Origin: a virus
Lineage: Duplodnaviria > Heunggongvirae > Uroviricota > Caudoviricetes
Virus record (IMG/VR): IMGVR_UViG_3300022660_000042
Reading direction: 5' to 3' (one strand)
DNA length: 64,000 nucleotides
Part shown: positions 1,000 to 35,455 of the stretch, one piece after another
Numbering within the stretch: position 1 is the stretch's first letter
How the letters are laid out: the number at the start of each line of letters is the position of its first letter
Position numbers and translations under genes: made by a program
The notes under the pieces: model-generated
Databases searched by the model: none
Told to the model about the DNA's origin: nothing
The model's input: the letters and a program-made list of their open reading frames with translations, nothing else

Positions 1000-1072
1000 T
1001 TCGTTTTTCCTTTCTATTATATATAAAAATTTTTTTCCTGTTTTCGCAAAATAAACAGCGAGCAGTAACTTG

Positions 1073-1146
1073 TGGAAATAAGAGTTGGACTCGAACCAAC
1101 GATCTTTGCATTGCTGCAACGCTCTAACCAACTGAGCTATCTCATT
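1073..1146 (-). tRNA. Atypical tRNA (Cys-like GCA, T73, encoded CCA) with a 4-6 nt anticodon loop
   Basis: Good acceptor, D and T arms; anticodon arm TTGCA-GCAA-TGCAA. Confidence 0.6.
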
Positions 1147-1193
1147 GATTATAGGAACCGCTTGTGCTGTTCTATTGTGTTTTAACGTTGTTA

Positions 1194-5348: not shown

Positions 5349-5423
5349 TGGAGGCGATTGGAATTGAACCAATCAAGAGAGGAACATTCTGTGCAAAAGT
5401 TGCGGAAAGTAACCTTTGCCCCC
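5349..5423 (-). ncRNA. tRNA-Ala/tmRNA-like acceptor-T minihelix carrying the repeated structured module
   Basis: GGGGGC/GCCTCC with G3:U70 and A73, T arm ATTGG-TTCAATT-CCAAT; no D or anticodon arm. Confidence 0.7.
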
Positions 5424-6734: not shown

Positions 6735-6846
6735 TGGGGAAGGCAGGATTCGAACCTACGACACACGCCTTGGAATGGAAATAGGAACGTTATATGCATT
6801 TCTACGAAACGTAAATACCGTTGCTCTACCACTGAGCTACTTCCCC
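6735..6846 (-). tRNA. tRNA-like gene with a 40-nt structured insertion; spliced form would read ACGCC-ATTCCAA-GGCGT (TCC)
   Basis: Perfect acceptor, D and T arms; the insert contains the repeated module. Confidence 0.7.
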
Positions 6847-6976: not shown

Positions 6977-7091
6977 CCGGCGAGACTGGATTCGAACCAA
7001 TAACCCAAAGTACCCTTTAGATAGGAAGCATTGGTGCTGAAAGCGAATACTAAATCTTAAACTTTTGCTCTACCGATTGAGCTACTCGCCG
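6977..7091 (-). tRNA. tRNA-like gene with a 49-nt anticodon loop containing the module; anticodon unresolved
   Basis: CGGCGAG/CTCGCCG acceptor, AAAGT/ACTTT anticodon stem. Confidence 0.7.
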
Positions 7092-14930: not shown

Positions 14931-15043
14931 TCGGAGAGGCACGGCTCGAACGTGCGACCTGCGGGTTATAAGCCATTAATAGGAACAACCTGTGCCATGA
15001 GCGGGTAGTAAAGTACGCTGCTCTACCACTGAGCTACTCTCCA
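14931..15043 (-). tRNA. tRNA with a 41-nt structured insertion; spliced form GCGGG-CTTATAA-CCCGC = tRNA-Ile(TAT)
   Basis: Canonical acceptor, D and T arms; insert lies between nt 29 and 30. Confidence 0.75.
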
Positions 15044-18657: not shown

Positions 18658-19383
18658 TCAACTGAGTTTTTCTTTAATACTTTCCCAAGTTAAATTGTTT
18701 TTATCCAATATGATTATTCGTATTCCATTCTGTTGTTGTACAATCGCAATCTTTTCAACATCAGTAATACCAAATTTTTTAGTTTTATTATTTATTAAAT
18801 AATCATTTTTTGGATCTAGATATACATCATATTCAGGAAGGTAAAAATCAGGATAATAACGATGTTTTATACCTTTAGTATCTTCCCAAATAAAATATGT
18901 AGGTCTTTCCCATTTTACTTGGTTTTCATCAAGCGTTTTTGCTACCTCAAATTCATATGTAGAATCAAGACTTGTTCCTTTATATTCTATAGTTTTTGAA
19001 GTATGCCAACCACCTAAATGACGTTCAAATGCAATTTCTCTCAGTTTTTGTTTATGCTCTTCAGATTGCGGATGACTAAAAATTCGTTTTCCTTCATCAG
19101 TTCCTTTATAACGCTCTGAAAATGTTTCACCTTGTTTCCTTACGCGTTCATCACTATCTTTAGTTAATCCTTTATTCCAAGCATAACTACCCGGAGCTAA
19201 TTTTCTTTTACCATTTTCATCTATAATATATTTTTGACTAGTTTTAATAGTATTTAAATCACATTCCTTTTTATGTTCATTTAAAAGACGTCTAGTCCTA
19301 AATATATTTTGACAAAATGGGCAAATCCAATTATTATATGCATTTGCTTGTTCTCTAACAACTTTATATCTACAATTTTTCAT
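18658..19383 (-). CDS. Putative homing endonuclease (Zn finger + NUMOD-like + PD-(D/E)xK domain)
   Basis: CPFC..H, WNKGLTK, DSTYEFEVAKTLD..RYYPDFYLPEYDVYLDPK; TATAAATA at 19388-19395. Confidence 0.75.
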   Translation of the reverse strand: MKNCRYKVVREQANAYNNWICPFCQNIFRTRRLLNEHKKECDLNTIKTSQKYIIDENGKRKLAPGSYAWNKGLTKDSDERVRKQGETFSERYKGTDEGKRIFSHPQSEEHKQKLREIAFERHLGGWHTSKTIEYKGTSLDSTYEFEVAKTLDENQVKWERPTYFIWEDTKGIKHRYYPDFYLPEYDVYLDPKNDYLINNKTKKFGITDVEKIAIVQQQNGIRIIILDKNNLTWESIKEKLS

Positions 19384-19425
19384 ATTGTATTTATATGAGT
19401 TGGTAGAGCAGTTGTTTATTTTTTA

Positions 19426-19496
19426 CGCTTCCACCTGGACTCGAACCAAGAAATCCGGACTACTAAACCGGCATTTTACCATTGAATTATAGAAGC
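19426..19496 (-). tRNA. tRNA-Thr(AGT)
   Basis: Loop TT-AGT-AG; A34. Confidence 0.75.
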
Positions 19497-19505
19497 TAAA
19501 AATTT

Positions 19506-19573
19506 GGCGGGCCGTAAAACCTTTTGATTACCAATCAACTGCTCATCTGAGCTAAATAGGAACGACCTATGCC
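19506..19573 (-). ncRNA. T-armless tRNA-Thr(GGT)-like RNA closed by the structured module
   Basis: GGC-ATA-GGTCGT-TCCTAT-T-TAGCTCAGATGAGC-A-GTTGA-TTGGTAA-TCAAA...ACGGCC-C-GCC. Confidence 0.65.
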
Positions 19574-19577
19574 ATTA

Positions 19578-19660
19578 TCAGGGTAGCAGGATTCGAACCT
19601 GCGATGTCACGAGGACGCTAGCTCCCGAAGCTAGTGGCAAACCAACCTGCCGCTACCCTG
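19578..19660 (-). tRNA. tRNA-Pro(CGG) with a long variable arm
   Basis: C1-G72, A73; variable region CGTCCTCGTGACATC. Confidence 0.8.
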
Positions 19661-19674
19661 TTTTAATTTGTTCG

Positions 19675-19747
19675 TCAGAGTGGCTGGGCTCGAACCAGCG
19701 ACCCCTCGCATCCTAGGCGAGCTCTCTACCAACTGAGTTACACTCTG
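19675..19747 (-). tRNA. tRNA-Pro(AGG)
   Basis: C1-G72, A73, loop CT-AGG-AT. Confidence 0.85.
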
Positions 19748-20518
19748 TTATTCAAACACATTTACCAAATTTTTATTTGGTAAAAAATGCTTACGTTTTT
19801 GTTCATCATGTTTACTATAGATTGGAATATATTTTTTAAACTTATTATGTAAAGCAATTTTAGATATTCCAAGTTCAATAGCCATATCTTCTAGTTTGTT
19901 ATAATTACCAGAATGATATTTATTCCATAACTTTTCAGCCAATATTTTTCCATTATCATGAAGTAATTTTATCCAAGCAGCTTTATTTATTGTTATACTA
20001 TACTTACCAGATTTTTTTACTTTAATAATACTAGTTTCTCCATGAAAAAGATTTCGACCTTCAATCCAAAATGGTTCTAGTGGTTTTTCTTTAAACTTTT
20101 TAGATTCTCCAGTATTACGATTTGTATACCATTTAGTTCCAAATTGTGAATTTCTTTTTCCTGATTGGCTTATACTTGTTAATTTACTTATTGCCGTAGA
20201 AAATTCAATTCTTAATTTTTCATAAACACGCGAATTAATATATCGTTTATGATTTTCATTAATACCTTGCATTCTCCATAATGCACATAACATTTTATTT
20301 CTTTCAATAGTTCCTTTCTCATACATTTTAACAAGTAACCAATGACAGATAAAATGTTCTCTAGCAGTTAACTTAACAAGATTTTCTTTTTCGTTAGTTC
20401 CTCCTAATGATTTAGGTTGAATATGATGTTTTTCAAAATAACCTAAACTTCGCTTCCCATTTTCATTCTCCGTTTTTGCTTTTTCAATTATTTTATAATA
20501 TATGTTTTTGTAATTCAT
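19748..20518 (-). CDS. HNH homing endonuclease
   Basis: EKHHIQPKSLGG..NLVKLTAREHFICHWLL; NUMOD-like SQFGTKW. Confidence 0.9.
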   Translation of the reverse strand: MNYKNIYYKIIEKAKTENENGKRSLGYFEKHHIQPKSLGGTNEKENLVKLTAREHFICHWLLVKMYEKGTIERNKMLCALWRMQGINENHKRYINSRVYEKLRIEFSTAISKLTSISQSGKRNSQFGTKWYTNRNTGESKKFKEKPLEPFWIEGRNLFHGETSIIKVKKSGKYSITINKAAWIKLLHDNGKILAEKLWNKYHSGNYNKLEDMAIELGISKIALHNKFKKYIPIYSKHDEQKRKHFLPNKNLVNVFE

Positions 20519-20821: not shown

Positions 20822-20884
20822 CTAATCCTGTAGTACCTCAGGGTTATTCGGATTGACGGTATTTGTGTTCATCGTGAAAGTCAT
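20822..20884 (-). CDS. Putative attenuator leader peptide MTFTMNTNTVNPNNPEVLQD (not in ORF track)
   Basis: 5 Asn, 4 Thr, 2 Pro, 2 Val, 2 Met; CTACAGGATT at 20824-20833 is complementary to the terminator 5' arm. Confidence 0.88.
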   Translation of the reverse strand: MTFTMNTNTVNPNNPEVLQD

Positions 20885-35154: not shown

Positions 35155-35455
35155 GTTGAACGGAGAGATCTAGCCTAGCAGGAATCACTAGACTAAACAC
35201 AGCTACTCTACTTTTGGCATAAAGTTTCGCGTGTCAATCTGGGGGACTTATGAACACTCTTACTGGTCGGTCATCCTGTACTCAGGCTACATAGTGTTCA
35301 GCCATGGCGGCAAGTGTATAGTTTGCTAAGCTATACTCGATAATCGAATCGCCTTTAACGTATACTTCCGATTTCAAAGTATACAGCGGCTTAGCCTCTA
35401 CCGATAATACCATTGGATTGGATTTCGTTCCGAGGACTAAGGCTCGAATGTCAGG
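35155..35455 (-). ncRNA. Candidate large structured ncRNA
   Basis: About 300 nt without ORF, TATATT at its 5' end, many hairpins. Confidence 0.5.

Follow-up and report, generated by a model that had tools for sequence, protein, structure and literature searches.

A conserved element with D- and anticodon-arm-like hairpins on a recurring RNA module in a phage tRNA cluster

The stretch of DNA analysed here (the window, 64,000 nucleotides) is the reverse strand of positions 92026-156025 in a 411,059-base virus record, estimated to be 98% complete, from a phage with distant similarity to the Prevotella Lak megaphages. Besides a tmRNA, the window carries at least 49 tRNA genes (ARAGORN and Rfam), and a clear match to the Rfam cow-rumen-2 RNA lies at 35239-35342 on the minus strand (94.5 bits, with a gathering score of 66). 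One small tRNA cluster, which has a promoter-like site upstream on the same strand (19853-19826) and ORFs of the homing-endonuclease type on its flanks, holds a 68-base element at 19506-19573. The element occupies the gap between the 3′ end of an upstream tRNA (19578), which Rfam detects and ARAGORN does not call, and the 5′ end of a tRNA-Thr(AGU) (19496). The features of this region are as follows.

19748-20518 and 18658-19383, minus strand: endonuclease-type ORFs among the tRNA genes, the matches being to an HNH homing endonuclease (phrog_655, E 8e-39) and a PHROG endonuclease
19578-19660, minus strand: upstream flanking tRNA with anticodon CGG (Pro), 83 nt long with a 15-nt variable region (Rfam tRNA, 42.6 bits)
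19502-19577, minus strand: whole candidate RNA unit, that is, the gap between the flanking tRNAs with an extra U-A outer-stem pair included (90.9 bits with model R1)
19556-19573, minus strand: 5′ half of the module, comprising the GGC outer stem, the AUA bulge, the GGUCGU strand of a covarying helix and the invariant UCCUAU
19541-19552, minus strand: D-arm-like hairpin GCUC-AGAU-GAGC, with UA before it and A after it, aligned with the tRNA D arm in a truncated Rfam match
19523-19539, minus strand: anticodon-arm-like hairpin GUUGA-UUGGUAA-UCAAA, with the "anticodon" GGU at 19530-19532
19506-19515, minus strand: 3′ half of the module, comprising the ACGGCC strand, a bulged C and the GCC outer stem
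19426-19496, minus strand: downstream flanking tRNA-Thr(AGU), beginning 9 nt past the element (ARAGORN and Rfam)

On the minus strand the element reads, from its 5′ end, GGC, AUA, GGUCGU, UCCUAU and U, then a D-type hairpin (UA-GCUC-AGAU-GAGC-A), an anticodon-type hairpin (stem GUUGA/UCAAA, loop UUGGUAA), a 3′ linker AGGUUUU, and finally ACGGCC, C and GCC, followed by A. The outer stem GGC/GCC is extended by one further U-A pair. Inside it the 3-nt bulge AUA faces the single bulged C, forming a 3x1 internal loop, and the closing helix GGUCGU/ACGGCC contains 6 bp, one of them a U:G pair. The D-type hairpin has a 4-bp stem and a 4-nt loop without GG, and the anticodon-type stem consists of four standard pairs with a G:A on top; a T arm is absent from the sequence. 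An earlier reading made from the sequence alone had described a D arm, an anticodon arm, a closing helix and a missing T arm, and we found each of these pieces where it had placed them. It had also reported one ACC codon in the upstream leader, and the leader peptide at 20822-20884 indeed has exactly one ACC, together with one each of ACU, ACG and ACA. The single-sequence fold of the element (-19.9 kcal/mol, z -2.07) matches the drawn structure, and 5 of 200 shuffled sequences folded equally well or better. Taken alone, the fold energy is weak support for the structure; the strong support is comparative.

The closing helix belongs to a module that recurs in the same genome; the sequence-only reading, too, had equated what it called the acceptor stem with the module. 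The module, or handle, follows the pattern GC-ANN-N4GU-UCCUAU with a complementary ACN4-C-GC, and at least 12 copies lie on one strand of the 411-kb genome; the element is an exact instance of the pattern with a covarying 6-bp helix. The sequence of the helix varies between copies with its complementarity kept. No Rfam family matches the module, and the motif was not found described in literature searches. In the closed form, the two halves surround a cargo, which in six copies is 26-31 nt long and mostly unstructured and in the element at 19506-19573 is 40 nt long. Another closed-form copy has a 55-nt cargo that includes a T-arm-like hairpin, and yet another carries an 84-nt complete tRNA-like body with a GCAA tetraloop in place of the anticodon loop. 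Most closed-form copies are situated 5-11 nt 5′ of a tRNA or directly past a promoter. The module also occurs in a permuted, hairpin form, both within a minihelix at 5349-5423 (minus strand) and at position 29/30 of three tRNA genes:

6735-6846, 6977-7091 and 14931-15043, minus strand: three tRNA genes with the hairpin-form module between positions 29 and 30

Two of these three interrupted genes read as Gly-UCC and Ile-UAU. Since an uninterrupted tRNA-Gly(UCC) is present at 156947-157020 of the genome, the interrupted Gly-UCC copy need not serve translation.

At window 1058-1167 (minus strand) the module encloses a complete tRNA-like body with a full D arm, T arm and acceptor stem, an encoded CCA and a GCAA tetraloop, for which ARAGORN gives the output tRNA-??? 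with a 2-nt anticodon. This design is kept in relatives with GCAA, GAAA or UUAU loops (L006:3390, L088, L119:3094 and L147), and it appears to be a conserved anticodon-less look-alike of a tRNA. Outside the window, a second lineage of module RNAs is found at genome positions 213053-213108 (L003:654) and 212956-213036 (L003:557). Its cargo is a bare anticodon-type hairpin with the loop CUUUAAA, replaced in relatives by CUGCAAA, CUUAAAA or CUUGAAA, such that C32, U33, A37 and A38 are constant and the "anticodon" bases vary at all three positions. A T-arm-like hairpin, UCGG-UUCAAAU-CCGA, neighbours the hairpin of this second lineage.

When viral and metagenome contigs were scanned with the pattern, 13 distinct variants of the type that carries D and anticodon arms came to light, most of them in rumen and gut samples. 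In the alignment of these variants 96.9% of the cells pair, compared with 87.6% in shuffles, and slid controls on the same alignment reach 31-49% and no more. Changes on both sides of a pair were found at six pairs, equally divided between the module helix and the anticodon-like stem, and one lineage inverts the anticodon-like stem altogether, from UUUGA/UCAAA to UCAAA/UUUGA. RNAalifold independently arrived at this structure. Invariant columns number 41 of 77; the D stem is identical in all 13 variants with a D-type loop of 3 to 6 nt, and within the 7-nt loop of the anticodon-like hairpin U33, G34, U36 and A37 never change. Position 35, by comparison, is G in five variants, C in five, U in two and A in one. 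Orthologues and paralogues therefore present GGU, GUU, GCU or GAU on one body, sometimes with a single base of difference between them: the copy in this phage differs from L118 solely at position 35 and by one indel, a GUU copy and a GAU copy share one 165-kb contig, and a GGU copy and a GCU copy share one of 12.9 kb. Because any of the four bases can stand at position 35 even in near-identical copies, "Thr" is not a conserved identity of this RNA. The free variation could also simply mean that the base is unconstrained. In this phage genome the subtype is represented by a single copy (90.9 bits with model R1, with the other module copies at 18-35 bits), and its interior has no second copy anywhere in the genome. 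A tRNA-like 5′ end begins 3-11 nt past the element in 7 of the 13 variants, and the GCU and GAU variants have no tRNA after them; that the downstream neighbours vary among relatives is consistent with shuffling of the tRNA array. In the 165-kb relative (L119:3216-3400), a GAU-type element sits directly 5′ of a short ORF starting MTYVMNTNNTNPNNNPEV, which is similar to the leader peptide at window 20822-20884, rich in Asn, Thr and Pro.

We examined the element against models of canonical and reduced tRNAs. Given alone, its interior produced a truncated Rfam tRNA alignment covering model positions 5-48 at 14.9 bits, with an E-value of 0.31 as counted across all 4,227 families. Judged by its sequence, the interior is tRNA-derived: besides this truncated match, UA-GCUC...GAGC-A, the 7-nt loop on its 5-bp stem and the AGGU that follows all agree with a tRNA. 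RF00005, the complete tRNA model of Rfam (gathering score 29 bits), had no match over 19497-19577 at E<=10, and Rfam 15 contained no family for the element, either across the whole window at gathering thresholds or across 19380-19780 at E<=10. ARAGORN did not call it in bacterial mode, and the metazoan-mitochondrial mode (-mt), which allows TV-replacement loops and missing T arms, returned nothing on the minus strand of 19480-19620. In place of a continuous 7-bp acceptor stem the element has 3-4 bp, the 3x1 loop and 6 bp; AAAUUUUUA comes after the closing helix and no CCA is encoded; the D loop AGAU lacks G18 G19; and orthologues do not hold one anticodon constant, as a canonical tRNA would. 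The pattern GAGC-NN-UUGAUUGGUAAUCAA-N-AGGU was found in none of the species-representative genomes. A shorter stem-loop pattern occurred at 68 sites in these genomes, two of which are tRNA-Thr genes, both in DPANN archaea. No tRNA-Thr with this anticodon stem was found in the species-representative bacterial genomes, so the element does not exactly reproduce the anticodon arm of a host tRNA. We conclude that the 68-base element is real and conserved, but most likely not a threonine tRNA. The assignment to tRNA-Thr(GGT) is not supported, given a body that bears GGU, GUU, GCU or GAU in orthologues and paralogues, and neither is the description as a working T-armless tRNA.

A candidate partner for the module emerged from its genomic neighbours. 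A 642-aa ORF (genome 68015-69943; L002:1516-3444) has one copy immediately upstream. Its product, a protein of the 600-650-aa class, belongs to no Pfam or PHROG family and has more than 1,200 homologues, including one on a 540-kb contig. Among diverged homologues (about 41-42% identity), three of four loci carry strict module copies that are intergenic and within ~200 nt of the gene ends: two copies upstream and one downstream of the gene in L139, three tandem copies upstream in L144, and one at the gene start in L143, which has a further copy ~1.3 kb upstream. Such patterns are otherwise very rare, and the module and the partner protein gene are thus associated. From this gene neighbourhood we infer that the protein binds the handle; the copies in the leader of its own gene could alternatively be autoregulatory operators. 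The predicted structure of the protein (pLDDT 83.7) combines a helical N-terminal part with a TerD-like C-terminal beta-sandwich, the latter aligning with the TerD-like structure 2qz7 over 122 residues (Z 10.3, rmsd 3.0). Foldseek and VIA, applied to the full model and to its N-terminal 400 residues, found nothing beyond this TerD-like domain; the N-terminal part had no significant structural match, its likenesses being generic helical ones with Z of ~7 or less. Family and structure searches recognised no RNA-binding fold, a profile search of PDB sequences returned nothing, and in the Atlas the protein falls solely into "hypothetical" and TerD-family clusters. We also considered a Ro60-like protein, which is not supported. 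Nothing in the 98%-complete genome matches the TROVE family (PF05731) at E<=1, whereas the control genomes do, and structural likeness to Ro60 is insignificant, the Ro/Rsr entries in the searches having E of 0.38-0.76 (best 2nvo, E 0.38, TM 0.21).

Sequences from RNA libraries cover the locus. A 1472-nt contig from a sheep-gut metatranscriptome (depth 115) spans 19498-19747 with one change; this contig, from a relative, has a compensating G to A at 19512, so that the helix has U:A there instead of U:G. A 151-nt contig from a bovine RNA library extends across 19469-19619. These are assembled contigs whose ends, strand and level cannot be read and which possibly include DNA, and they are compatible with transcription of the tRNA cluster but do not amount to evidence of a discrete RNA. 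The one joint close to the element, from 19450 to 19498 in an RNA contig with 186 other letters between, was considered as a splice and set aside, as it reflects a different arrangement of the relative's DNA.

We favour, with a probability of about one half, the interpretation that the element is a small, non-decoding RNA that mimics tRNA arms, tagged with a handle and tethered through it to a protein. The evidence for it includes the anatomy of the element; the 13 variants, with a compensated handle helix and anticodon-like stem, a constant U33/G34/U36/A37 frame and any of the four bases at position 35; the occurrence of the handle in at least 12 copies, with varied cargoes and beside the partner gene; and the position of the element, with tRNAs abutting on both sides, a promoter-like site upstream and contigs from RNA libraries. 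The handle would consist of the 6-bp helix with its 3x1 internal loop, the short GC outer stem and a single-stranded UCCUAU, and would close over a variable cargo. In the 19506-19573 copy the cargo would be a grafted tRNA fragment that combines a D hairpin, its loop reduced to a stub, with an anticodon stem-loop of the form U33-G34-N35-U36-A37. The RNA may be transcribed within the tRNA operon, with its 5′ end set by 3′ processing of the upstream tRNA (19578-19660) and its 3′ end by the RNase P cut at the 5′ end of tRNA-Thr(AGU), which would release a piece of ~75-80 nt. The 600-650-aa phage protein would then dock on the handle, and the anticodon-loop look-alike could be shown to a factor that binds anticodon loops, acting as decoy, competitor or adaptor, with the variable position 35 setting or escaping specificity. 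Such a role gains plausibility from published tRNA-directed defence and toxin systems whose targets are Thr, Asn and Lys tRNAs (PMC12409363, PMC12445682).

Several other explanations have to be weighed against the arm mimic. One of them keeps the threonine assignment and takes the element for a genuine T-armless tRNA for ACC/ACU, in which the module helix, perhaps with the partner protein, replaces the acceptor and T arms. The D stem, the 5-bp anticodon stem and the 7-nt loop with U33 and A37 would suit such a molecule, and a closing helix of ~10-11 bp plus internal loop is near the length of an acceptor-plus-T-stem stack; the helix is broken by the 3x1 loop, however, and is common to copies around non-tRNA sequence. 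There is an A directly 3′ of the stem but no encoded CCA, and 7-nt linkers stand in place of the usual 2-nt one. While the genome has no other tRNA-Thr(GGU), it already contains Thr(AGU) and Thr(UGU) genes. With no full-model Rfam match at E<=10, no ARAGORN call in bacterial or mitochondrial mode, and an anticodon (Thr, Asn, Ser or Ile) that differs between near-identical orthologues with the rest of the body unchanged, we regard this explanation as very improbable. We give even less credence to a split tRNA, in which the element would be one half, cut as directed by the module and joined by RtcB ligation to the minihelix at 5349-5423. The anatomy invites the idea: the minihelix has an acceptor and a T arm, with the hairpin-form module where the D and anticodon arms would be, and so complements the arms of the element. 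The module stands in opposite circular permutations in the two, and the hairpin form recurs at position 29/30 in three phage tRNA genes. The minihelix, which sits directly after a tRNA-Ala gene, carries G3:U70 together with A73, which by the classical rules specify alanine, and a joined chimera would consequently mistranslate, placing Ala at Thr codons; U70 is conserved in relatives (L006:1219, L008:4684). The modules pair in cis (6/6 and 5/6 pairs), whereas cross-pairing of the element with the minihelix reaches just 4/6 in the phage and is inconsistent in a relative, and the anticodon of the supposed half differs among relatives. The splicing-endonuclease family PF01974 is absent from the 98%-complete genome, and the 3x1 loop with a 6-bp helix is unlike a bulge-helix-bulge (3-nt bulge, 4-bp helix, 3-nt bulge). 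The assembled contigs of the RNA libraries contain no joined 5349/19506 form, which still leaves room for one. Of the proposal that the element is the structural complement of the minihelix, the complementarity of the arms thus stands, and a functional complementarity is not supported, given the alanine marks and the pairing in cis.

The remaining explanations do not make the element a tRNA. The module could act in cis on the tRNA operon as a cassette for processing or regulation, either as an operator for the partner protein on pre-tRNA leaders, spacers and insertions or as an excision signal, with an interior that is a passenger to be discarded or circularised once cleaved. The placement of most closed-form copies, 5-11 nt 5′ of a tRNA or directly past a promoter, fits this well, as do the copies within the partner gene's 5′ leader, an arrangement frequent among autoregulated RNA-binding proteins, and the hairpin form that splits the otherwise normal Gly-UCC and Ile-UAU tRNA genes. 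Yet a passenger would not be expected to retain an invariant D stem, a loop frame and three compensated stem pairs across 13 variants, and the GCU and GAU variants have no tRNA after them; we therefore hold it to be rather unlikely, though the most probable of these alternatives. The features of decay, namely a D loop cut to 3-6 nt, a lost T arm and, in this phage, a G:A mismatch on top of the anticodon stem, might instead suggest a functionless tRNA pseudogene caught between module halves, and homing endonuclease genes, which promote rearrangement, are scattered through the tRNA arrays. A decaying gene would hardly keep one truncated architecture in 13 variants, with stem changes compensated and 41 of 77 columns invariant, nor place paralogues with different bases at position 35 on single contigs, and we judge this origin improbable.

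If the arm-mimic interpretation is extended beyond this locus, rumen and gut megaphages might possess a set of protein-tethered anticodon-arm mimics with swapped "anticodons", forming a programmable decoy or adaptor system around a protein with a TerD-like domain. Such a set, which we propose tentatively and with considerable doubt, would hold the frame of U33 and purine 37 fixed and vary the bases between, with GNU here and UUA, GCA, UAA or UGA in the second module lineage. Its targets, equally conjectural, could be factors of the host or of rivals that recognise anticodon loops, for instance defence nucleases, toxins or modification enzymes.

The customary view of phage tRNA clusters is that they supply spare parts for codon usage or anti-defence. 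The element described here is a conserved RNA that has D and anticodon arms only; the helix that bears them is a recurring one and is linked to a large family of unannotated phage proteins that is also widespread. The present analysis adds the conservation of the D/anticodon-arm subtype, the variability of its position 35, and its failure in the tests for a tRNA and for a split tRNA. Should the tethered mimic prove true, it would constitute a new viral route to tRNA-directed conflict systems (PARIS, OLD and T6SS tRNA toxins) and an entry point to the function of the partner protein family. For annotation the case counsels caution, as tRNA finders miss such elements, which could nonetheless be mistaken for unusual tRNAs specific for one amino acid.

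Among known systems, the T-armless mitochondrial tRNAs of nematodes and mites likewise have D and anticodon arms with a short loop replacing the T arm. In those tRNAs a continuous acceptor stem receives CCA and the anticodon is fixed per gene, whereas the closing helix of the element is a shared module, its anticodon drifts and ARAGORN makes no mitochondrial call. The split and permuted tRNA genes of archaea are processed at bulge-helix-bulge motifs of 3-4-3 geometry by EndA plus RtcB. They resemble the element in having tRNA pieces bounded by a bulged leader/trailer helix and in circular permutation, and differ from it in that its helix has 6 bp with a 3x1 loop, the EndA family is missing from the phage and no matching half was found. 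Phage tRNAs with an anti-defence role offer a further parallel: AriB of PARIS targets Lys, Thr and Asn tRNAs (PMC12409363) and P2 OLD acts on Thr tRNA (PMC12445682), and in both cases phage tRNAs escape or compensate. Like the element, these genes belong to phage tRNA clusters, and what is contested is the anticodon arm of tRNAs that decode ANN codons. Those tRNAs are complete and decoding, whereas the element is a fragment carried on a protein handle. The closest concept described so far is the YrlA-type Y RNA of bacteria and phages, which goes with Ro60/Rsr (Rfam RF02553; Chen et al. 2014, PMC4201824). Both are small RNAs that combine a protein-docking helix with a tRNA-like domain, both are encoded by phages as well as bacteria, and both are thought not to decode. 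The element is nevertheless outside that family. RF02553 scored 13.2 bits (E 8.3) at 19545-19625, well below its gathering score of 69, in an alignment that took in just the 5′ part of the element and mostly the T arm of the neighbouring tRNA, and the Ro-binding motif GNCGAA(N)G is absent from the element sequence. The two are unlike in docking motif, in the tRNA arms that they retain and in partner protein: Y RNAs dock through GNCGAA or GGUCCGA and the element would do so through GU-UCCUAU with a 3x1 loop; YrlA keeps D, T and acceptor-like arms and the element keeps the D and anticodon arms; and the phage genome, which has no TROVE gene, encodes beside its module copies a protein that is not significantly Ro60-like.
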